DNA of 64,000 bases, taken from Elsinoe ampelina. Its lineage: Eukaryota. The position numbers and the translations under genes were made by a program. The stretch covers positions 62,001-126,000 of the forward strand of contig ML992502.1 in NCBI GenBank assembly GCA_010093995.1, written 5' to 3'. The notes beneath the pieces are model-generated. The model was given only the letters and a program-made list of their open reading frames with translations, ran no database searches and was not told where the DNA came from. Shown in pieces: positions 805 through 57,600 of the stretch. How positions within the stretch are numbered: the first letter of the stretch is position 1; each line of letters begins with the position of its first letter.

Positions 805-1076
805 ACACTACCATCCACGTGCGTTGTCACTGTAAGTCATCGATCCTGCATTTCTTTGTATCACCGACATCACATTCTGTGCTACCTTGGGCAACGGTCA
901 TCTAATCGCTGCTTTGAGAACTGGAGGGGCACGCCGTTACCACTATACCAACCGCGCAGCCTTCATACCATCAGAGACTGACAAACTTCAGAAATTTGTT
1001 GTTTCAGACTGGTGACGACACCACTTTCTAGCGAACAAAACATCAACAACAACTACATCTTTGTTGAATCACAACC

Positions 1077-2543
1077 ATGACACCGCACGCCATCTACGAC
1101 TATCCACGCACGCCATCCGCACGCTCGTCCAGCGTCAGCAGCGCTGCCTCTTCAACGACAAGGACAAGGACCATCGATCACAGCCCGTACTTGCGGACTG
1201 TACCCAGCGATGAGCTTCATGACCTTGTGTGCGTTGGCTTCGGACCAGCCTCGCTAGCAGTCGCCGTCGCTCTTCACGATTCCTTCTCCAACGCCTTAGA
1301 TGGTGCACCGGCTTCTGCTCTGCCAAAGGTGTCTTTCCTGGAGCGCCAGCCTCAATTCGCATGGCACGCAGGCATGCAAATCCCAGGTGCCAAAATGCAA
1401 ATCTCCTTCCTCAAGGACTTGGCCACGCTCCGTGATCCTCGCAGCGAGTTCACCTTCATCAATTATCTCCACCGCAACAAGCGTCTCACCGCATTCAGCA
1501 ACGTCGGCACCTTCCTCCCCCGCCGTCTCGAGTACGAAGACTACATGCGCTGGTGCGCCTCAGCTTTTGAGCCCGTCGTCTCCTACAGCCAAGAAGTCCT
1601 CTCCGTCGACCCCGAGCCCTCCAGCTCCGGCAAGCCCACCCGCACCTTCGCCGTTACCTCACGGGACACCAACACCGGCGCCACCACCACCCTTCGCACC
1701 AAACATGTCCTCATCGCGGTCGGCGGCCGTCCCAAGATCCCCGCTTCCCTCCCCCAAAAGTCCCCCCGCGTCATCCACTCCAGCCAATACCAACGTTTCC
1801 TCGCCAATACTTCGCTGGACCGCACCTCCCCACTCCGCATCGCCGTCATCGGCGGCGGCCAATCCGCAGCCGAAATCTTCAGCGACATCCCCAACTCCTT
1901 CCCCGCCTCCACGTCCCGACTACTCATCAAAGCCTCGGCCCTCCGCCCCAGCGACGACAGCCCTTTCGTCAATGAAATCTTCAACCCGGAGCGCGTGGAC
2001 GACATCTACGCCACGCCGGCCCAGCAGCGCACCGCGCAGATCATGCAGGATAAAGCGACGAATTACGGGGTCGTGAGGATCGAGTTGCTGGAGCATATCT
2101 ACGAGGAGCTGTACACGCAGCGCATCACGGTGGGGAACGACGAGGCCGAGTGGCGTAGACGGATCCTCGCGAATCGTCTCGTCGAGAGGGCCGAGGAAGG
2201 AGATGGGACGGTGAGGTTGCGCGTCAGGGGGACGGATGAGAAGGGCGAGGCGGTGGGGGAGGCGGAGGAGATGGAGGTGGATTTGGTGTTTGTCGCGAGT
2301 GGGTATGAGAGGGATATGCATGAGTGGATGTTGAAGGGGTGTAGGGGGTTGTTGGAGAAGGAGGATGGGAGGTTTGAGGTGCAGAGGGATTACTCGGTGA
2401 GGTTTGCTGGGGGCACGGTGGCGAGTGATGCGGGAGTGTGGTTGCAGGGATGTAACGAAAAGACGCATGGGTTGAGTGATACCCTGTTGTCAATATTGGC
2501 GGTGAGAGGGGGGGAGATTGTGGGAAGCATTTTTGGGAGGTGA
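1077..2543 (+). CDS. sidA: L-ornithine N5-monooxygenase (siderophore biosynthesis)
   Basis: 488 aa intronless ORF; FAD motif DLVCVGFGPASLA, FAWHAGM..MQISFLKDLATLRDPRS, NADPH motif IAVIGGGQSAAE, DDSPFVNE, ATNYGVV, C-terminal HGLSDTLLS. Confidence 0.96.
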   Translation: MTPHAIYDYPRTPSARSSSVSSAASSTTRTRTIDHSPYLRTVPSDELHDLVCVGFGPASLAVAVALHDSFSNALDGAPASALPKVSFLERQPQFAWHAGMQIPGAKMQISFLKDLATLRDPRSEFTFINYLHRNKRLTAFSNVGTFLPRRLEYEDYMRWCASAFEPVVSYSQEVLSVDPEPSSSGKPTRTFAVTSRDTNTGATTTLRTKHVLIAVGGRPKIPASLPQKSPRVIHSSQYQRFLANTSLDRTSPLRIAVIGGGQSAAEIFSDIPNSFPASTSRLLIKASALRPSDDSPFVNEIFNPERVDDIYATPAQQRTAQIMQDKATNYGVVRIELLEHIYEELYTQRITVGNDEAEWRRRILANRLVERAEEGDGTVRLRVRGTDEKGEAVGEAEEMEVDLVFVASGYERDMHEWMLKGCRGLLEKEDGRFEVQRDYSVRFAGGTVASDAGVWLQGCNEKTHGLSDTLLSILAVRGGEIVGSIFGR

Positions 2544-43331: not shown

Positions 43332-46300
43332 TGTAACTATATAAATACTTAACCTAGTGTACTAAAAGATAGCTAAATCAAAAGAACTCCTTAATAGTAG
43401 CAGATTAAGACAATAATTATCTAATTTGATTATAGATTAGTAAAATAGTAAGATAGTGTTTAGTTTAACCTTAGGATAAACTAAATTAGGGTCTTCTTAG
43501 CGCTCTAGCTTATACCTCAGTTAATATACCCCTTTACTAAGTAGCTATAACTCTATAATAGCTAGTTAGTAGACTACTAACTCGAGAGATAGCTATTATA
43601 AGAAGGCCTTATATCTCCTAGGTAGTAATAATTTAGTAAATCTATTAGCTAGTATATCTACTAATAGTGTCTATATAACTAAGATAGGACTAGATAGATC
43701 TCTAGCTTAATTAATCTCTTGTTTTAGCTAATAATAATAAATATTAACATAGTAAAGATATATATTTAGCTTCTTAATTAGAGTAGTAATAAGACTAATA
43801 GTTTACTAATTATTACACTAAATACTAACATATTTAAGAGGATAGATAGAAGCTATTAGCCTCCTTTACTATATAGCTTACTTAGTAGTCTTTATAAAAG
43901 TAAGTAGCTTAGCCTCTATAGTTAATATTATAACTATTAGTTACTTTATAGCTTTCTAGTTAATTAATNNNNNNNNNNNNNNNNNNNNNNNNNNNNNNNN
44001 NNNNNNNNNNNNNNNNNNNNNNNNNNNNNNNNNNNNNNNNNNNNNNNNNNNNNNNNNNNNNNNNNNNNNNNNNNNNNNNNNNNNNNNNNNNNNNNNNNNN
44101 NNNNNNNNNNNNNNNNNNNNNNNNNNNNNNNNNNNNNNNNNNNNNNNNNNNNNNNNNNNNNNNNNNNNNNNNNNNNNNNNNNNNNNNNNNNNNNNNNNNN
44201 NNNNNNNNNNNNNNNNNNNNNNNNNNNNNNNNNNNNNNNNNNNNNNNNNNNNNNNNNNNNNNNNNNNNNNNNNNNNNNNNNNNNNNNNNNNNNNNNNNNN
44301 NNNNNNNNNNNNNNNNNNNNNNNNNNNNNNNNNNNNNNNNNNNNNNNNNNNNNNNNNNNNNNNNNNNNNNNNNNNNNNNNNNNNNNNNNNNNNNNNNNNN
44401 NNNNNNNNNNNNNNNNNNNNNNNNNNNNNNNNNNNNNNNNNNNNNNNNNNNNNNNNNNNNNNNNNNNNNNNNNNNNNNNNNNNNNNNNNNNNNNNNNNNN
44501 NNNNNNNNNNNNNCCTCTAATAGAGTAATACTAGAATAGTCCTTTATAAGATCCTCTACTACTAGCTTAAATCTAGTAGAGATAGTATAGTAAATAGTCT
44601 TATTAATAGAACTATTAATATAGGTATTAACAATATCTATCTAGATAGCCTCTATATCTTTATAAGTAAGTAATACTATAAGCATTCTAAAGATCTTAGC
44701 TACTAGAGTTACTATATAAGTCTTAGATTTTATTAATTAAAGATTACTCCTTATATAGACTTTTACTTTATACTTTATAACTTCTTCTTTATTATTAACT
44801 TTATAGGTAAATATCTATATTAAAGAGATAGGCTTACTAGTAGCTTAAGCTACTAGTATAATAGTCTATATATGTTTTAAGTATAAAGTAAGTAATTTAA
44901 CCTTTATAGCCTCTTAAAATTACTTCTTATAAGAATAAGCCTTAAGTTCTCTAATATTAGCTAGTAGTACGTCACAAAAACACTTTTCGTGGGGAGTTAG
45001 GGAATTAGGTTTATTGCTTAGGATTGCGTTGGAAAATCCTAAAAGAGTTATATTACCTTACTATTTTTCGTACTATTTTCGCGTTTTTCGCGATTTTACG
45101 TGTCTATTTAGAGTAAATTTACTTTCCCTATATATTATNNNNNNNNNNNNNNNNNNNNNNNNNNNNNNNNNNNNNNNNNNNNNNNNNNNNNNNNNNNNNN
45201 NNNNNNNNNNNNNNNNNNNNNNNNNNNNNNNNNNNNNNNNNNNNNNNNNNNNNNNNNNNNNNNNNNNNNNNNNNNNNNNNNNNNNNNNNNNNNNNNNNNN
45301 NNNNNNNNNNNNNNNNNNNNNNNNNNNNNNNNNNNNNNNNNNNNNNNNNNNNNNNNNNNNNNNNNNNNNNNNNNNNNNNNNNNNNNNNNNNNNNNNNNNN
45401 NNNNNNNNNNNNNNNNNNNNNNNNNNNNNNNNNNNNNNNNNNNNNNNNNNNNNNNNNNNNNNNNNNNNNNNNNNNNNNNNNNNNNNNNNNNNNNNNNNNN
45501 NNNNNNNNNAACGTAATCTAATGCAATCTAATGCAATTCCCCACGAAAAGTGTTTTCGTGACGTAGTAGAAGATTATCTCTTAATTCTAGCTTAGGCTAA
45601 GTTAGTGTTATTAATAGATAAGTATTAAAGGCTTAGTAATATTTAGAAGCCTTATTAGTTTATATAAGGGTAGTAATATATACTTACCTTCTTAGTTTTC
45701 TTATTCTTCTTATTATAAGAATATATTTAGAAAGAAGATTAGCTAACCTTATAGTAATTCTTTAAGAGAGTTACTTAGGCTAAGCTTTAACTACCTCTTT
45801 AGTCTAAACTTCTATCTTATTTCCTTTAGCTTTATCTCCTCCTAGTAGTAGAGGAGATAGCTATACTACTATAGATAGTAGTAAGGCTAGAGTATTAAAG
45901 AACTATTTATTTAGTAAAGATTCCTAGATTTAAGCTAGGTTTAGATCTAGAATAGTCTCTTCTAATTAGTCTAATAGAGGTAGTAACTAATCTAGTATAA
46001 TAGAGTAACTCTTATCTAGCTACTAAAATAGGCTTAGCTCTTAATCTAGATTACTCTAACTTAGAGTCTAAGATAGTATCTAGTTCGGCTACTAAACTAG
46101 ATTCTAAACTAGATTCTAAACTAGATTTAGTTTAGTTATTCTCTCTACTTTATATACTCCTTTAGATTTATTAACCTCCTATAGAAGCCTTAGTAGATTA
46201 AGTAATCTAATTAGTTTTAGCTAAGATTATTCCTCTAGCTTATAGAACTAAGTTTTATTAAATCTAATATCTCTTATTCTAATAACCTTCTTAGAGGCTA

Positions 46301-47905
46301 GTATAAAGATNNNNNNNNNNNNNNNNNNNNNNNNNNNNNNNNNNNNNNNNNNNNNNNNNNNNNNNNNNNNNNNNNNNNNNNNNNNNNNNNNNNNNNNNNN
46401 NNNNNNNNNNNNNNNNNNNNNNNNNNNNNNNNNNNNNNNNNNNNNNNNNNNNNNNNNNNNNNNNNNNNNNNNNNNNNNNNNNNNNNNNNNNNNNNNNNNN
46501 NNNNNNNNNNNNNNNNNNNNNNNNNNNNNNNNNNNNNNNNNNNNNNNNNNNNNNNNNNNNNNNNNNNNNNNNNNNNNNNNNNNNNNNNNNNNNNNNNNNN
46601 NNNNNNNNNNNNNNNNNNNNNNNNNNNNNNNNNNNNNNNNNNNNNNNNNNNNNNNNNNNNNNNNNNNNNNNNNNNNNNNNNNNNNNNNNNNNNNNNNNNN
46701 NNNNNNNNNNNNNNNNNNNNNNNNNNNNNNNNNNNNNNNNNNNNNNNNNNNNNNNNNNNNNNNNNNNNNNNNNNNNNNNNNNNNNNNNNNNNNNNNNNNN
46801 NNNNNNNNNNNNNNNNNNNNNNNNNNNNNNNNNNNNNNNNNNNNNNNNNNNNNNNNNNNNNNNNNNNNNNNNNNNNNNNNNNNNNNNNNNNNNNNNNNNN
46901 NNNNNNNNNNNNNNNNNNNNNNNNNNNNNNNNNNNNNNNNNNNNNNNNNNNNNNNNNNNNNNNNNNNNNNNNNNNNNNNNNNNNNNNNNNNNNNNNNNNN
47001 NNNNNNNNNNNNNNNNNNNNNNNNNNNNNNNNNNNNNNNNNNNNNNNNNNNNNNNNNNNNNNNNNNNNNNNNNNNNNNNNNNNNNNNNNNNNNNNNNNNN
47101 NNNNNNNNNNNNNNNNNNNNNNNNNNNNNNNNNNNNNNNNNNNNNNNNNNNNNNNNNNNNNNNNNNNNNNNNNNNNNNNNNNNNNNNNNNNNNNNNNNNN
47201 NNNNNNNNNNNNNNNNNNNNNNNNNNNNNNNNNNNNNNNNNNNNNNNNNNNNNNNNNNNNNNNNNNNNNNNNNNNNNATTAGTTATAATTAATAGTATAT
47301 AGGCTACCTTTATAAGATAGATAGTTATAGGCTTTCCTTTATAAAGAGCTATAATATTAATAGTTCTCTAACTCTTAATACTAAGTAAGGTATTACTATA
47401 GAATAGCTTCTTATAAAGTTCTATAATTCTAGTAACCTTATATCTGTCCTTTATAGTATAATTATAGATATAATTAGTTACTCTAGAATCTAGTATCTAT
47501 AAGTTAGAGATGTTACTAGTAGCTAAAATAAATACTAAGTGTAATCTAATAGTAATAGCTATATTAATTAATACTAGTAGAGTTAACCCCTTTTAATATT
47601 ATACTTCCTTAGTAAAAGAAGTCTTAATTCTCTCTTTAAGAGTCTTATTATTTAGTCTTTATTTAACCTCCTTTATAGTCTACTAGTTTAGTGTCTATTC
47701 TTCTAGCCTTAGATACTTATTTAAGTAATAGTACTTAATCTACTTATACTAGCCTTAGTATATATATTTAAGCTCTCTAGAGAGACTAGGTTTCTTATAA
47801 AGAATATTCTTAGTAGCTATAGAGAAGGCCGTAGCCCCCTTACTAGCCTTTATAGTACTATATAGCTTATAAAGTTTATAAAACTATCTAAATATAAGGG
47901 CTTAG
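43332..47905 (-). mobile_element. RIP-destroyed Ty1/Copia LTR retrotransposon (gapped, interrupted by nested elements)
   Basis: De-RIP motifs in Copia order on the - strand: gag knuckle ~47760, protease WILDSGAT ~47490, integrase C-term KKVIRTRDVRFD ~46290, RT LPPPP..WIFTYK ~44820-45570, RNase H ~43650-43950; PPT and putative 3' LTR ~43525-43332 ending in CA. Confidence 0.8.
44970..45563. mobile_element. TIR element/MITE with TA duplication inserted in Copia pol (interior is an assembly gap)
   Basis: CGTCAC[A/G]AAAACACTTTTCGTGGGGA inverted termini; TA on both sides; removal restores the Copia LPPPP frame. Confidence 0.8.
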
Positions 47906-49414
47906 TATTAGAGCGGTACTTAGTAGCGGCTAGTCCTACTTACGTAATGTACTTAAATATTCTATATAGCGCTTACGCCTAGGGCTTAATAGTAATTAGT
48001 TCTACTACTAACAGACTATTCGGTTAAATAGACATTCTCTATATTACGACATATATAGCTTTAATATAAGACATTAATAGTTCTAATTACTCCTCTATAG
48101 TTATAATCTATTAGACCTTATAGACAACTAGAACTCTATTAGTAAGGCGCCTATACCTCGTATAAACGATGTTATAGAGATAGACTCTATTAAGTAGACT
48201 TCCCTAGAGAAAGAAGAAACTCTTATAGAGTAGCTACTATACCTACGCGCCGAGCGTAAGTATTTAGAGCTAGAGCTTAAGGCTTAGAGCCTCGAGGAAG
48301 AGATTAAGTAGATATATTACTCGCGCGATATAGAATATACTTCTACTAGCTTTAGCTATAGCTTATATACCTCTATAGAGTATATAGTAAGTAAAGCTAG
48401 TACTTAGAGTATATATAGCTTAGGTAGATTATTTATAAGACTATTCTTAGAACAACCTTAATTAAGAGAGCCTTATCTCTATTAAGGTAAGACGCTTAAA
48501 GAGGTAAGATTCTTCCTAAAGGATCTTAAGGTTATCTTTACTCTAGCCTCTAAGGCTTATTCTACTAATTAGTAAAAGATACTATATAGAGTTATATTTC
48601 TCGCTAGCGAGCTAAATAAGATATAGTATTACTACTACTATATAAATAGCCTAGAGAGCTATATATAGAAGTAATTTTGCTAGTTTATATAGAATATAGT
48701 TAATAACTCTATTAACTATAGAGTGTATATAACTCTTATATATAAGAGTACCTAATAACGTAAGAGCTAATCTATCTAGGTCTTTACCTTAGAACTTACT
48801 ACCCTAGAGAAGTAACTAGCTCTCTACTTAGAAGAATAAAAAGTATACTATCTCCTTACTAAGTTATAGCCTACACTACGTACTACTATTATTAAGTACT
48901 ATACTATTCTAGCTACTCGCTAAGAATTAGTATCTCTTAGCTCTTATATTAAATTATTAAACTATATAAGCTAGTATAACTGTTAGAGCAGAGTTAGGGT
49001 AGCTAAAGGCCGACCCCGGTACTAGTATAGAGCTATTCTTAGTAGGTTAGTACCTAGTGCTAAACTAAATAGTACTAGCTCTATACTCTACTATATTAGT
49101 ACTAGTACTAGTACTACGCCGAGCTATACTAGTACTAGTACCGTACTATAGTTAAGCAAGAATAGTACTATACTATAATAGCGCTATACTATACTATAAT
49201 AGCACTATACTAAATTAGTACCGGGGTTAAATCCTAGTATTATACTACGTTATAGTACTACGCCTTAGTTAGGCTTTAAGGCGACTATAGTTACTATACT
49301 ATACTTTAGTATTATAATAAGTCTATAGAAAGGAAATTTAATAGTCTAGTCTATATAAAAATATACCTACCTATTTCTTATAGTTTATTCTTATAGTATT
49401 ATAGAGAAGAGGTC

Positions 49415-49999
49415 TTAATAATTAGAGAAAGTAAGTAGGTAGTACTTATTATAATATTTCTTAGCAAGCTAAGAGTCTTTCTATATAATAGTATAATACT
49501 TAGCATAGATAGTGTTAAGATTATAGTCTACTATAGTTATTAGTATAAGGTATTATATATTCTAAATATATAGTTAATATACCTTCGAAATATTCTACTA
49601 GTATTGTCTTACTTACTTTCTAGAGATACTTAATAGTATCTAGCGTAAAGCGTAAATCTTTACTTATAAGTGTTAACTTAATATCTTACGTAATGTTATA
49701 AATAATATAGAAGAAGAGGAGCTTATATATAAGAAGTTTAGTTATCTTCTAGTAGCGATAAATCTCTTAGAGGGTAATAGCTATACTATATTAGATATAA
49801 GACTATAAGAATTTACTATAAGAAACTAACTACCTAGCTTAAACCTATAGCTCTTCGCCTAGTAAATTTATCTAGTTAATACTAGTCTAAATTTTGTTAC
49901 GTAACTACCTATAGTAGACTTTTTAGTAGTAGTTTTCTTAGCGCCTTACTTCCTTAGCTTTACCCTTTTTAGAGGTGTTACTTACTTCTTACGAGCTAT
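49415..49999 (-). pseudogene. Histone H3-like gene captured in the hAT, RIP-inactivated, 3 exons
   Basis: Exons 49999-49831, 49780-49583, 49527-~49415; literal reading ..YRFKLG|TITL*EIYRY*KITKLLIYKLLF..DLRF..L*KVSKTILVEYFE|DYNLNTIYAK..TII*KDS*LA converts by C>T/G>A reversals to [63 protein letters not shown]. Confidence 0.9.
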
Positions 50000-50375
50000 A
50001 GCTATATAAATTTATTAAATTAATTGTTAAAATTTGTTTATAAAGGTAAAGAAGAGTAAGGCGAAAATACTAAGAGTAAGATATTAAGCCTTATTAAGGA
50101 ATTTATAATAGTATATAGAATATAAATTTCGTATTGTTATTCTCTACTATAACAACTTTATATTAACAATATTAACAACTTTATATTAGTATAATAATAG
50201 AATAAATACCTATTGTTACTTATATTTCTAGCTACTCTATTTACTATATATATAAGAAATACTAAATTCTTCTCTCTTTATCTTCTCTTTATAAAACTTA
50301 TATCTTATATCTCGCTCCCTATTATACTTAATATTCTACCTTCTCTTATAAATTACTACTAATTCTCGATCTATA

Positions 50376-51647
50376 ATGTCTACTAATCCTATAGATTAGT
50401 AAACCTTTAGTAAAGAGGAAGAGATAACTAATACTCTAGTAATTAAGACTAAAGAAATAACTAAGGAAGAGAAAGTAATTCTTACTATAATAGGAGTAAT
50501 TCTTATAGATACTTCTTATAGTTAAATACTAACTAGACTATAGAGTTTTAATTCTAAGGCTAATAAGATTAAATACTAGATTAAAAATCGCTCTTAGAAT
50601 ACTAGAACTTCTTACTATAGCTACTCCCTTAGAATTCTATAGTAGAAAGTATAGCTTAGTAATACCTAGTAAGTAATTTAGTAAAGAGATTACGCTATAT
50701 AAGCTAGTATAGAGAAGAAAGCTCTTACTACTACTAGTAATGCTAATTGCTCTATAAAATATACACTTAAGGCAAAACTTAAGAACTCTAAGGAATTCTA
50801 AGTAATATTTAATAAGAAGAAAGAAGCTACCTTTAATATAGTATACGAGAAGATAGTAGAGACTCGCTATTATACCTAGTAGAGTAGTATATTTCTTATA
50901 GCATATTCTTATAGTATATCTACTAATTCTATATAGGGGAATAGTTAGAGGACAAGTTTATATCTATTTACTAAAAATAGAGTAGTATCTATAAAGCTAA
51001 TACTCTCCTTTACTATAAGTAACTCCTTACTAATTATATAAAGAAGATACTCTATAATAAGACAAATATATTTCTAAATTGCTAAGTAAAACATCTTCTT
51101 AGTACTAGCGGAATTCTTAAGAAATAGACCTATAAGATCTACTACGACAGTGTTAACTTACTATATAATACTAGTAACTATAATAATAGTAACTAAGCTA
51201 AGTTTAAGAAGTTTATTAAGAATATAATACCTACTAAACTCTAAGTAGTATAGGTAGATAATTAGGTATATATTATTTCTTATAGTTATTTCTTATAGTT
51301 ATATACTAATCTATCGAAGCAAATATAAACCTACTCCCGAACTAGAATTTAAGTACAAGAATAATAATATTTTACTTAAATCTAATAATTACTATGTTAA
51401 GTATAGTAATAACAAGGTTAAAGAAGAAGTTAAGAATAACTCTAAGATTAAGAACCTTCTTAATAAGAAACTTAATAAGTATAAGACTAAGGAAGTAGCT
51501 AAAATATACTATAAGGTAGTTACTACTAGAGACTTTAATAATTCTAATTAAGAGAATTAGGATAAAGATAATAATAAGGCAATAGATAAGAGTAATAATA
51601 ATAATAAGAAGAGTAAGAGTAAGAATAATATAGATAAGAATAAATAG
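50376..51647 (+). pseudogene. Second hAT cargo gene of unknown family with inferred acidic C-terminal tail, RIP-destroyed
   Basis: ATG at 50376; frame interrupted only by TAA/TAG (RIP-type) stops; intron-like segments 50887-50936 and 51266-51319; gat-aat-aat-aag runs at ~51540-51647 de-RIP to D/E tracts. Confidence 0.55.
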
Positions 51648-51821
51648 ATTAACCTTAAGTTAGGAAAATTAGACTATAGTTTTAGTAGCTTTCTAGTTCT
51701 ATACTATTAAAAATTTTTTAATCTACAAATTAAGAGTAGCTAATAGATTCTTATAGAGTATTCTTATAGTCTTCTACTTCTTATTATATAGCTAGTAATA
51801 TTCTATATTTCTATTCTTAAA

Positions 51822-54600
51822 ATGTTAGTGTTTAATAAAGACTTAGTTAATCCTTAACTATAGATACTCTTAGAAGTTGTTACGCTACTACTACCTCTCC
51901 TTTACGAGCTTAAAGAGTTCTATATTAATTACTAGAATAATCTATTCTCTACTCGATTCTATAAAACTATTAAAATTATTAGCTATCTACTCTACTAACT
52001 AGATATACTACTCGAAGAATAGCTAGCTATATAAGCCTAGAAAATATAGTAGCCTATAATATTAATAGGTAGCGAATTAAGAGTTAGCGAAATACGAAAC
52101 CTACTAAACTAAAATTCTATAACCCGCTATAGAGTTATTTAGACTAACTTTAATAAAGGTACTAAGCTCGCTAATAAAATACCTCTTATATATTATCTCT
52201 ACTATAGTAGAGCTTTATAACACTTAATAACGAACTTAATTAGTAATAAACACCTAATAAAACATCTTAGACACTAAAGCTACTAGAATATAAAATCTCC
52301 TAGCTATAAATAATTAGTAGCTTAGATAGCTCTAACGTAATTAAAAGCGAATACTACTAGCACTATATCTTATATACTATAATTCTCCCTAGAACAATTT
52401 AAAAAAGAGCTTATTAAGGTCCTTATTAATTATAATTAGTTATTCCGAATAGTTAATAATTCCTCCTTTCTCTAATTTATATATTTCCTCTAGCTATATA
52501 CTAATATTCTAAGTTAGACGTAGGCCTTAAGACTATTAAAAGAGCACTATAAGGACATTTAGTCTAATCTTCTTACTAATCTTAGTAGTTAGACGAAAGT
52601 TTTAATTACGCTAGATAGCTAGTCTATAAATAACTATCTAAGTTTTATAGCTATAAAGGTATACTATATTAATAATAACTAGTAAGTATATAAGTGCCTA
52701 CTAGATTTTATACTAATTAGTAGATAGTATACTAGAGTTATACTTAGTATAGAACTACTAAGAGTTCTAAATAAAAAAAAGATTAACATATATCTTCTTA
52801 CTATTATAGTAGACAATATAAGTAACAATAATACTCTACGATCTAAAGTATAATAAGGTCTTAAGAAGAAGAGTATATACTAGTTCTCTATTAAGAATAT
52901 AATTCTATATCTAGCCTATGTAATTAATCTTATTATATAAGATATTATTTAAGCTCTATAGCTAGAAACTACCGAGGATAATAAGAAAGCTAATAAGCTT
53001 AAGAAGTAGTATCTCTATAATATTTAAATAACTCTATTAGTTCCGAATTCTCTTTATAAAGTAAGTTATATTTCTTATAGTTCTTTCTTATAGTTTTTTA
53101 ACTAATTTTAAAGCTCTATATAATTTATATTATAATTAACTAATCCCCTTAACGCTACTAACACTTTAAATCTCTTTAAGTATATCTACCTCCTTATAAA
53201 TAACTCTTAGTCGTTTAGGACGTTTATACCTATTAGAACTTAATATATAATATATATAAGCGAGCTATTAAACTTTAACTAATTATTAATAAATAGCTTA
53301 ACGTAGAGATTATAATTGTATATAAGCCCTAAACTAATAAAGCGCTAGCTAATTAAGATATAGTATCTATTAATTACATAGATATAAAACACCTTTACTT
53401 TAGCTATACTAAATAGGCATATCTAAAGATTGTTATCTAAATACTAGAGAATTTTAAGAATATAACTAACTAGCTAAGTTAGTCTTATACGCTATTAGTA
53501 TAATATATATAGCTTATGTATAATACTCTTTTTAACTTTCTTAACGTAGTTAAGTCTACTTAGGAAGAGAATAATAACTTAGACTAGCTATTAGTTATAT
53601 AAAATGTAGTAAAAGCTAGTTATACTAAGCTTTCTAAGTATTATAAGTAAACGAGTAAAGGTTAAGGTTTCTTGTTTAATTATAGTATAATTTTAAATCT
53701 AACTTAGAAACTTAGTATATATAAGTATACTTCGTAGGAACTACATTTTAAATCGCTTTACTATAAATAGTTCCTTAACTACCTTAATTACTATAATAAT
53801 AACTACTCTCCTTAAACTACTCTTCTATCTCCTCTACTAGCCTTATCTATTACTTACTAGTTTAAGAAGCTTTCCTTATTAAATACGAGAAGTAGCTTTA
53901 TACCTCTAGTATCTAGCTAAGATAATACACTTTTATAAGAGTAGAGTAATATCTATATAATAAGAATAGAAGGAGAGAATTACCTTAGAACTTCGCCTAT
54001 ATAGGAAATATCGGAATTTAATATTCTTTCTTAGTAGAAAGAAAATAAGTACTTATTTCTATAACTAGCTTATATTACTTATAATGTTCTTATAATACTA
54101 ATCGCTAGCGTAGGTATTAAATGTGTTTTAATATAGTAAAGAATGTTATTAGCGATTAAAGGTATAGACTACTTCTATAGATAATCTAATAAATTATAGT
54201 CTCTAAGCTAGTAGAAAATAATCTTTAAAATATCTAATCGGCTAAGACGAACAATTTTACTACTACTAACAATAATACTAATAGTAGGATAAATAGTATA
54301 AGTAACAACTTTAGAGATATTACTATCTATAGTTTAAGTAATAAAGAGATTAACGAGGAAGAAGAGTATAATAAGGACGAAGATCTACTATATAACGTTA
54401 CTAAGGTTAGAGGCTAGTATTTTAAGTATATCTAGTTAATAGTCTCTAAGTAATAATACTCTTATAGTATCTATACTAATACCTACTCTAAAGCACTTCC
54501 GCGCGTATCTTCTCTATTACTATATATAATTCTACCTACTAATACTAATAGTCTCTCTTTGTTAGCTACCCTAAGGAAGCTTATTCCCTTACTCGCTAGT
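51822..54600 (+). pseudogene. hAT transposase, RIP-destroyed (end approximate)
   Basis: De-RIP: BED-like CxxC..KHL, SIALDGWS..FMAVKAHYID, ITADNASNN, IPCLAHVINL, intron 53061-53113, QDVHTRWNSTY, dimerisation domain LSWWKENE..FP.LA..ARDVLAIPIAGVGIERVF. Confidence 0.9.
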
Positions 54601-57600
54601 ATCTTTAATATAACTATATTTGTATCTACATTAGTTATACTAGATTCGCTTATAAAAACATTAACGAGAAAATCGTATAGATCGACTATAATATAAAGGC
54701 TAAAGCTATAACTAATCTCCGCGCTACTTCTCTTATTATTAACCTTAATAACTACTTCCGCTATAGTACCTATAACCTTAGCTAACTTATTACTAACGCT
54801 ACTCTCTATACTATTACTAATATCTACCTTATTATACTCTCGACTTTCTTACTAGGTTTAAGCCTAATAATAGTTAGGTTACTTTCTAGAATAATACTAA
54901 TAGTAAAGAGAATAACGAGGAAGGTACTTCTACCGCTAGTACCGATAGTACTACCTAGAGTAGTAATATAACTACTAGTATAGCTAGAGGTAATATAAAT
55001 ACTTCTACTTTAAGAGCTTATATACACTATTGTTATAGTTAATTTTAGTTACTTACGGGAAGAGATAATATAATTAAGTCTTTATAAAGTATAAGTCTAT
55101 ATTATTAATAACTAACTAAAGCTATTAGCCTACTAACGCTTTAACTACGCTACCTTAATTAGATTAGTTATCGGAAGAAATACTATCGTTACTATCGTTA
55201 ATATAATTTAACTTCTCCTACTTATATTTAATATTATAGCGTATAGTAAAGAGTAAGAGTAGATCTACTCTTCTATTAAGAATAAGACAATTAATAGTAC
55301 GCTACATATTAATTAGGTTAAAGATATTATTAGTCTATAAGATATTATACTAATATTTGTTAGATTATAGAGAAAGATTAGATTAGGAACACCTATAAAG
55401 TTATAAGGAGTATCGTAAGTGTAGTAGGCTTTATAGTAAAGTACTAAACCTCTATAGTTATTATAGATATATTTAGCTTAGATTTTGTAGTTATTATTAA
55501 AGTTAAGATATATAAGAGTTATATAGTAGATATAGGCTTTACACTAACGTAGGTATAAGGGCCTAGCGTAGTTACTAGGAGTTATCTTATAAGGCTAAAA
55601 GGGAATTAGATCTACTAGGTCGAGGTAGAGTTAAGCGTAAGAAGGAGACATTATAGAAGAAAGTATTAAATAACAAGAAAGAGAGGTTTAAGAGAAAGAA
55701 GGAGAAATAGCAACTAAAAGGTATATATATCTAGCATTACCTATTATAAGAACAATAATATAGATAATAGCTATTATCTATTATAAAAAAACAACAATAC
55801 TAATAATAGCTATTGTCGAATAATAGCTATTATTATACTAAGGGATATAAGTAGATTATTAGCTAAGTTACTTCTTTCTCTCCTTAGAAACATTTAAATA
55901 ACTATCTAGTATACCTTTACGTCGCTATAGTATAACTTATACTAACAGTTGCTAGAATTTAAGTAAATCTACTACTATATCTACTACTTACCCCTCTATT
56001 ATTTATTAGGCTAATATTACTTACTATAAATTTATTAATAATCTTTAGGTAGAGATTAAGGCTCTAGATAGCCTTATACTTACTATTAACTAGTAATCTA
56101 ATAGTATTAAGACAATTCGTAACTATACTATAAGTTAGTAAGAAAGCTAAACTACCTAGAACTAATTATTCTAGTCTTAGACTCTACCTAATAGCTTTAG
56201 TACTCCGGTTTACTAGTTAAGAGTTATAATTTATATAAGAGTAAACTTACTAAGGATAGAATATTCTCTAGATAAAGTAGATAATAAGATAATAAAGTAT
56301 TAGTTCTAGGTAGTATATAGCTTACTAGCTAAGTATATAAAATAGACTTATAGAGGTTATATAGATAATATTAATTAGGTTAATCTTCTATAAATTACTA
56401 TTAGGTCGTAATTGTATATAAGAGTTAATAATTAATAACTTTTACTTCTCTCTAGTATTCTTTACCTACTATAACTTTAAGCGTTTAGAGTAGAAAAGTA
56501 ATAAGAGTTATAAGATATAGTAGTTACTATAAGAATTTACTATAAGAATAGCAACCCCGGTATAGTACTAGTAAAGGTACACTAAGGACTTAATAGTACT
56601 ACACTACTTATCTGCCGACCTAACTTAGTACTATACTACGTCTAGAATATATACGACCTAACCTATACTTAGTACTAGTATAGTGCTATTATAGCTATAG
56701 TATAGAGCTAGTACTAGTACTACTAAGCCCTTAGTAGTACTACGCTAGCTAGAGGCCGATCTAAACCCTAGTATAGTACTAAACCTAAAGGGGCTAACTC
56801 TACCCTAATAGTTATACTAATATAAGCTATAAGCGTTTCGCCTATAAAGAGAACTTAGACCTACTATATAAGTATAGAACTTAAGGTAGCTCTTAAGAAA
56901 GAAACTACTACTAGTCTAGTAGTAGCTCTTAAGTTTATCGCGAGTAAGAGGCTACTAACTTATCTACTAAATAGTTTAGTAGGTAAGAGAGCACCTTCGA
57001 GGTATAGAAGAAGAATACTAAGTATTATAGCTATAGTAGAACTAGCTATATTAAGCCGGAGTATAGATCGAAGTACTTATAGAAAGATAAGAAGTTATAG
57101 ATAGTATATAAGGTAGCTACTATAGATAAGGTTAATAACTCTAAGCTAGTAAACTCTAAGAGCTTAGCTAATAAGCGTAACTAAGCTCTACTCTTCTTTT
57201 AATCGATACTTACCTATCGCTACTCTATTATAGCGCTATTATAGCGCCTATAGAGCATAAAGACTATATGTTTCTTATAAATAATTATATAGAAGTTAAT
57301 CTTATATCTTAGGTATTTACTCTTCGTTATAATTTACTAAGAGTTAAGTATACTTAGTATCTAAGTATATCTTTCTTTATAGAGTAAGCCGGATTCTACT
57401 ACGACATATACTAGCTTCGCGTATATCTAGTAGACTTCTATAGTAACCTTAGAGAGATAATTAGCCTCTTCTACGCTATAGACTTAGGACTAGGCTCTCT
57501 AGTTATCTTAGAGCGTCTATAGCGAAGAAGATAATATATAATTATAGATAGCGCTATAGATAACTAGTTATATAGCTACTTCTTATATATAGTTTACTTA

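Follow-up and report, generated by a model that had tools for sequence, protein, structure and literature searches.

We analysed a 64,000-nucleotide stretch of Elsinoe ampelina contig ML992502.1 (positions 62,001 to 126,000, forward strand; hereafter the window) and found in its AT-rich part a hAT-type DNA transposon (48972-56819) that carries, near its left end and on the minus strand, a gene derived from histone H3 (49415-49999). The explanation that best accommodates all the observations, and which we regard as probable, is that this is a copy of a hAT element, inactivated through repeat-induced point mutation (RIP), whose H3-like cargo had already diverged from canonical H3. Whether the master copy of the element encoded a translatable H3 variant under purifying selection for its fold is a finer question, for which the codon pattern suggests that the chances are about even.

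The element is 7848 bp long, has a G+C content of 26%, is heavily RIPed and is multi-copy in two organisms. It is bounded by inverted repeats of 26 nt at 48972-48997 (+) and 56794-56819 (-), which are 88% complementary and whose three mismatches are all transitions when the arms are read side by side, and it is flanked on both sides by the 8-bp target-site duplication ATATAAGC (48964-48971 and 56820-56827). To examine further copies, public contigs were compared with the window at ≥80% identity, from the window's own organism (organism A) and from a second one (organism B). In an empty-site contig of organism A, 48963 is joined to 56820 with 7856 bases skipped, namely the 7848 bases of the element and the 8 bp of one duplication, and the transposition event is thus independently proven. 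Unrelated sequence is joined exactly before 48972 in five organism A contigs, and exactly behind 56819 in five, and these divergent contig ends are other insertion sites of the element. The exact termini and duplication claimed in the original prediction are therefore confirmed. Since the empty-site contig exists while the flanks of the element (48800-48971 and 56820-57000) are at repeat-level depth in organism A, the hAT element appears to be nested in another RIPed repeat.

These data also bear on the possibility that the H3-like frame is the relic of a host gene lying beside or under the transposon. In favour of such an origin there is nothing more than the location of the frame close to one end of the element. 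The frame lies 443 bp inside the left inverted repeat, it is removed along with the element in the empty-site contig, and the H3 part is found at repeat-level depth in organism A and in many organism B contigs, so a host relic is extremely unlikely.

The base composition of the element carries the signature of RIP. Its TA/AT index is 1.85 and its (CA+TG)/(AC+GT) index is 0.127, versus 0.81 and 1.15, respectively, in bases 1-43000, the gene-rich portion of the window, where the G+C content is about 50-60%. From about 43 kb on, the window is AT-rich (G+C 9-38%), with runs of N, masked or unassembled, at 43969-44513, 45139-45509 and 46311-47277. The composition of the element and its RIP indices point to a RIP-proficient filamentous fungus as the host. 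The variation among copies is of the same kind. In organism A, 3907 contigs fall on the element stretch and occupy 30 of 30 depth bins (1117 at ≥99% identity, 1217 at 95-99%, 1269 at 90-95% and 304 below 90%), and the variant places among these copies comprise 394 transitions and 4 transversions. In organism B, 12050 contigs occupy 29 of 30 depth bins, with 196 transitions and 32 transversions; this number of transversions indicates that the organism B copies are truly diverged relatives. The element is a multi-copy family that diversified in organism A almost exclusively through RIP.

The H3-like gene comprises three exons on the minus strand. Exon 1 (49831-49999) encodes a basic N-terminal tail in 56 codons, with ATA in place of ATG at 49999-49997 and four in-frame stops; it was assigned because it is in frame with exon 2 across a good intron and because of its beginning, ATA-GCT-CGT-AAG-AAG-TAA (M?-A-R-K-K-Q?). 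Intron 1 (49781-49830, 50 nt, GTTAGT...CTAAT...TAG) lies in phase 1 in the Thr45 codon. Exon 2 (49583-49780) holds the equivalents of Thr45 to Glu105, extending from the last part of the N-terminal helix through helix 1 and loop 1 over most of helix 2. Intron 2 (49528-49582, 55 nt, GTATAT...TACTAAT...TAG) lies in phase 1 in the Asp106 codon, and exon 3 (49415-49527) runs from the Asp106 equivalent to a TAA about seven codons past the end of H3, so that the C-terminus reads T-I-(I/M)-(stop, reversible to Q)-K-D, as had been predicted. The frame contains no frameshift over 160 codons and ten in-frame stops, at codons 6, 18, 44, 47, 61, 67, 88, 110, 138 and 142. This copy of the gene is dead; RIP destroyed the transposase gene of the element as well as the H3-like one.

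The homology to H3 is evident without reversing any RIP mutation. As the reference we took P0004 (residues 1-136), a canonical H3 of animal type. From Lys37 to Arg129, and over both exon junctions, the spliced raw frame can be aligned with it with an insertion in loop 1 as the sole gap; the introns are those predicted, at 49830-49781 and 49582-49528. This alignment has a Smith-Waterman score of 151, compared with 22.0 ± 3.5 (maximum 39) when 400 RIPed segments are taken at random and 24.1 ± 3.6 (maximum 44) for 300 codon shuffles. Taken alone, exon 2 scores 81 (null 19.5 ± 3.8) and exon 3 scores 42 (null 17.5 ± 3.5, maximum 35), while the score of exon 1, 27, is not significant (null 19.2 ± 3.8, maximum 39). 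A six-frame H3 scan of the whole window recovers exon 2 with a score of 81 and exon 3 with 46; a further score of 54 near base 1189 was judged spurious from its translation, which is an arginine-rich antisense of an ornithine-monooxygenase-like gene.

Database searches with exon 2 gave a concordant result. Searched against the PDB with X at the stops and RIP unreversed, it matches H3 at E=1.6e-4; the best 60 of 154 matches are all H3, with no CENP-A or Cse4 among them, and both printed alignments open a gap of five residues in H3 at loop 1. The match to Pfam PF00125 (E=0.0013, 19.4 bits) does not reach the gathering score, which is 26.4. A search of 1.84 billion representative proteins gave 12 matches at E≤0.001, all 12 of which align 64 query residues (2-65) to 59, and none of these 12 has the loop-1 insertion itself; the best E value, 2e-12, is aided by repeated H3 copies in the targets, since each of the seven that were read, out of the 12, contains canonical H3 in two or three copies. 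Word-index protein searches with exon 2 produced 18 and 2 candidates in two modes, none of which was scored.

The original prediction had recognised the H3 fold from its match after reversal of the RIP transitions. That conclusion stands, on the raw score and the absence of frameshifts, whereas the criterion used does not. RIP-aware scoring gives 418 for the gene, but it is very permissive, with a null of 166.5 ± 17.6 and a maximum of 215, and every TAA, TAG or TGA is reversible by definition, so that the absence of stops after reversal is not evidence. It is the raw scores and the intact frame that argue for H3 homology. A chance resemblance, produced by generous RIP reversal in AT-rich DNA, would draw on precisely this high RIP-aware null and on the non-significant exon 1, but it has to face a raw score of 151 against null maxima of 39 or 44, the PDB and protein-library E values (the latter with the aid of repeated targets just mentioned), and the recovery of exons 2 and 3 by the window-wide scan. 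We consider its probability practically negligible.

The protein is nevertheless not canonical H3, as had been proposed, nor does it approach the near-invariant sequence of canonical H3 or H3.3, in spite of its significant similarity in the fold. Over the fold (H3 residues 45-135, 91 aligned codons), 39 codons are identical to H3 as read and 32 can be reconciled with it by reversing C>T or G>A, which leaves 71 compatible positions and 20 that are irreconcilable, and caps the identity at 78%. The irreconcilable positions are S57, Q68, L70, E73, F78, T80, Q85, S86, S87, M90, A91, Y99, L103, T107, C110, V117, P121, I124, I130 and A135. Gln68 is among them, in line with the earlier reading: the codon at its place (codon 80, 49710-49712) is TTC, which before RIP may have encoded F, L, P or S, and never Q. 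Two insertions, both in frame, add to these substitutions. The one in loop 1 (15 nt, 49662-49676, codons 92-96, L-T-L-I-S) lies between the Lys79 and Thr80 equivalents and corresponds to the five predicted residues. The other, of about 36 nt, makes the tail 12 residues longer than that of H3 (Thr45 is codon 57) if the ATA at 49999-49997 was ATG, close to the ten or so residues anticipated.

Because the organism A copies differ by nearly no transversions, yet 20 fold positions require changes that RIP does not make, the master element must already have carried the divergence from H3. This divergence is older than RIP, which excludes a recent passive capture of canonical H3, and passive capture of the housekeeping H3 is thus unlikely for this family. 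The original prediction had named the absence of the gene from other copies as an outcome that would speak against it. Organism B pieces do cover the H3 part, at 49525-49626, 49664-49763 and 49869-49962, and the contig on 49664-49763, which is ungapped, takes in most of the loop-1 insertion, from codon 92 through codon 95 plus one base of codon 96, the first.

Two accounts of this older divergence have to be weighed. In the first, the gene evolved as a protein-coding gene of the transposon. The arginines at 49, 63, 69, 72, 83 and 116 (all the DNA-contacting ones that were checked), as well as His113 and Asp123, are kept or reconcilable, and together with the in-frame insertions they fit past purifying selection, without proving it. 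In the second, the cargo was a neutral passenger: a transduplicated genomic H3 decayed as a pseudogene before RIP and was never a working protein. The irreconcilable Tyr99, Leu103, Val117 and Ile130 count in favour of the passenger, and so do two published observations, namely that all the Mycosphaerellaceae copies described in the cited part of PMC6710886 are dead, and that Manning et al. suggest, in the section of PMC3538342 used here, that the H3-like genes (H3L) of Pyrenophora tritici-repentis (Ptr) 'may have undergone drift'. It sits less well with two insertions in multiples of three and no frameshift, with the retained arginines, His113 and Asp123, with the GT...AG borders and branch-site-like motifs still present at both introns, and with the distribution of the indels listed for organism B within 49415-49999 (in the first 12 of 38 rows of the indel table), four of which fall in intron 2 and one in exon 1. 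On balance, we judge the neutral passenger rather unlikely.

Several points weigh against the explanation preferred here. At several hydrophobic core positions (Tyr99, Leu103, Val117 and Ile130) no reversal of RIP gives back the residue of H3, and this might just as well reflect decay that preceded RIP. Since indels are not a product of RIP, a frame that is intact after RIP says nothing on selection, and two in-frame insertions are expected by chance about 1 time in 9. The single exon 1 indel mentioned above is a 1-base deletion at 49908, present in two organism B contigs. The number of irreconcilable codons depends on the animal-type reference, and the H3 of the fungal host would lower the 20 slightly; fungal H3 has Ile89 and Gly90, and both fit codons 106-107. 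In addition, the gene was read from a single copy in the window, and the transposase-domain match stays under the Pfam gathering score, with no catalytic core, BED finger or DUF659 found in the raw RIPed frames. Within the window, blastn, two-letter blastn and the six-frame H3 scan found no second copy of the element or H3-like stretch, and a RIP-tolerant purine/pyrimidine pattern of exon 2 matched its own site only, with no match in metagenome contigs. Two presumed RNA runs are uninformative either way: X4 gave two partial contigs on 51586-51630 that continue into unlike sequence, and X7 gave none.

The original prediction attributed CenH3-like traits to the gene. The diagnostic features of CenH3 (Malik and Henikoff, as quoted in the cited passage of PMC4359364) are an extended loop 1 and the absence of Gln69, Phe85 and Thr118. 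Two of the four are found here, the five extra residues of loop 1 and the loss of Gln at H3 position 68 (69 counting Met), both in the region of chaperone recognition, and to this extent the attribution was right. The other two are not: codon 101 is TTT, which encodes Phe at H3 position 84 (85 counting Met) within a preserved DLRF motif, and codon 135 is ACT, which encodes Thr118 and has only Ala as its other pre-RIP option. The gene thus seems not to be a CenH3, a name that would be a weak label for it. The related idea, that the cargo is a captured host CenH3 rather than H3, gains from the extended loop 1 and lost Gln68, and is at odds with the retention of Phe84 and Thr118 as read, with a fold identity to H3 of up to 78%, with a tail that begins ARKKQ like that of H3 and holds K-K-S (which an organism B change would turn into R-K-S), and with the best 60 of 154 PDB matches, all H3 and none CENP-A or Cse4. 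It is quite improbable. Besides these residues, a gene carried by a transposon in many copies is itself unlike CenH3.

The tail had further been proposed to lack the normal K9 and K27 contexts, which holds in part. The place of Lys9 shows no legible ARKS. In the window copy, codons 26-28 give K-K-S; two organism B contigs carry a C at 49923, a change that turns codon 26 into AGA and would give R-K-S if the neighbouring codons match the window, and the ACT codons that flank codons 26-28 could have been GCT before RIP. R-K-S is the core of the Lys27 context, so the organism B change is a lead towards a context retained rather than lost. As the alignments of the tail are ambiguous, both the K9 and the K27 readings are leads, not results.

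We propose the following sequence of events. A hAT element of 7848 bp inserted, with an 8-bp duplication, into the AT-rich, RIP-type stretch of the window of a RIP-proficient filamentous fungus, carrying the transposase on the plus strand and, near the left end on the minus strand, an H3-like gene with two short fungal-type introns. In the master element this gene would have been intact as an open reading frame (ORF) and already diverged from canonical H3, with changes at no fewer than 20 of the 91 fold positions, a loop 1 lengthened by five residues, a tail lengthened by about 12, and Gln68 lost. The protein would have kept the H3 start, the RKS motif, Phe84, Thr118, the DNA-contacting arginines and His113 and Asp123 of the H3-H3' interface. 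By analogy with the expressed H3L of Ptr, the product was most likely an H3 variant that was translated and could pair with H4, and as loop 1 and helix 2 form the region read by chaperones, the changes there would give it a deposition path unlike that of H3. RIP then killed both genes, leaving in the window one inactivated member of a multi-copy family that does nothing.

The transposase side of the element is less well preserved. When 42 windows of 450 residues from the six frames were compared with Pfam, two families were returned, an Ig domain (E=0.1) and the hAT C-terminal dimerisation domain PF05699, which lies at 53969-54112 on the plus strand, the H3-like gene being on the other one, and has E=0.0028 and 17.8 bits, short of its gathering score of 21.4. 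The six full-length raw frames of the element gave no match at E≤1, and the hAT catalytic core, the BED finger and DUF659 were not found in the raw RIPed frames, in which RIP is so heavy that they cannot be taken to be absent. We accepted the hAT assignment because PF05699, among 24736 families, was the one expected beforehand, and because of the 8-bp duplication; short terminal inverted repeats are likewise a hAT trait. A word-index protein search with the hAT C-terminal region returned 339 candidates, none of which was scored, and purine/pyrimidine codon periodicity did not resolve strand and frame.

The roughly 2.5 kb to the right of the transposase remnant (54300-56790) had no recognisable content in the Pfam frame scans; this part might hold other cargo, or else be the counterpart of the Ptr element's 'central ORF'. 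The subterminal stretches 49000-49030 and 56740-56790 show G+C-rich motifs (e.g. GGCCGACCCCGG and GGTTTAGATCGG) amid the RIPed DNA, one of which resembles a consensus subterminal motif of Cercospora, GGTTTAGGTCGG, from which it is one transition apart. Such motifs are possible transposase-binding sites, though chance could also account for the likeness. Outside the element, the gene-rich part of the window contains a 491-codon open frame at 1068-2543 (+), by eye an L-ornithine N5-monooxygenase of siderophore biosynthesis, and displays an alternating GC skew (±0.3 in 1-kb windows) that probably tracks gene orientation.

To our knowledge, histone genes are rare as transposon cargo. The copy described here is itself dead, and its present role is only that of an addition to an AT-rich, RIPed compartment. 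It adds, however, a third and apparently distinct hAT family with histone cargo, one in which, before the family expanded, the cargo was already a diverged H3 variant that had an extended loop 1 and had lost Gln68 but whose tail was like that of H3.

The central idea, a divergent histone on a hAT element that is neither H3 nor CenH3, is already published, the original prediction was right that such captures had been reported, and literature searches gave no report of hAT-borne H3-like genes beyond those from Pyrenophora and the Mycosphaerellaceae (PMC3538342, PMC6710886). According to the cited section of Manning et al. 2013 (PMC3538342), Ptr has a 5.6-kb hAT element on which H3L lies together with a central ORF and a transposase, present in 26 near-identical copies; the H3L genes are represented by expressed sequence tags, and the proteins they encode show insertions in the tail and variable helices in the fold, 'matching neither H3s nor CenH3 completely'. 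The likeness, as far as that description goes, is close: both are multi-copy hAT elements with a transposase and, between the inverted repeats, a gene for an H3-like protein with tail insertions and fold changes that is neither H3 nor CenH3. The Ptr element, however, is 5.6 kb long (2.3 kb in a short form), almost free of mutations and transcribed, whereas the element here is 7.8 kb long and destroyed by RIP.

The Mycosphaerellaceae elements resemble ours in other respects. The cited part of Dhillon et al. 2019 (PMC6710886) describes hundreds of RIP-killed H3-like copies on 9.5-kb hAT elements in six Mycosphaerellaceae, and shares with our case an H3-like sequence in a large hAT element, the 8-bp duplication, AT-rich blocks, RIP inactivation and the high copy number. 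The inverted repeats there are roughly 18-20 bp, and that of Cercospora zeae-maydis (Czm) is TAGAGGTTAGAATAGGTC, versus TAGTATAACTGTTAGAGCAGAGTTAG here. Their H3-like copies are interpreted in that text as intronless retrocopies, one or two per element, whereas the single copy here is interrupted by two introns. No window-derived string was found in the six consensus elements of the supplement of PMC6710886, a weak test, as it depends on exact strings and is affected by line breaks and RIP; the one string that matched had been derived from the Cercospora consensus. The element in the window is thus apparently not an obvious member of either published family. Inspected by eye, the Czm consensus published there has in its H3-like part no loop-1 insertion and likewise no Gln68 (PF-Y-RL), and seems to hold two GTAAGT...TAG introns at the same codon positions (Thr45 and the Glu105/Asp106 boundary). 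PMC6710886, in the part cited, calls the Pseudocercospora fijiensis copies intronless, and the '16-amino-acid insertion' that it reports in second copies could be an unspliced intron.

With regard to the cellular histones, the predicted protein shares with canonical H3 the histone fold and N-terminal helix, the ARKKQ beginning and the DLRF motif, and differs from it by at least 20 fold substitutions, the enlarged loop 1, tail and C-terminus (about seven residues) and the missing ARKS at Lys9. From CenH3 it is separated by Phe84, Thr118 and its H3-like N-terminus. A further idea, which we think clearly unlikely to be correct, is that the H3-like genes of the Dothideomycete hAT families (here, in Ptr and in the Mycosphaerellaceae) form one old, selected lineage of transposon histones, whose hallmarks would be a lost Gln68, a remodelled loop 1/helix 2 chaperone region and retained tail marks (K4, ARKS). 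The hints towards it are the conservation of loop 1 in a two-organism family, the in-frame insertions and, by eye, the two intron positions and missing Gln68 of the Czm consensus. If it were true, the histone of this lineage could be deposited by a different pathway and could alter the chromatin of the elements or of their AT-rich compartments. The H3 variant is common to two organisms and provides residues that can be compared in the intact, expressed H3L of Pyrenophora.

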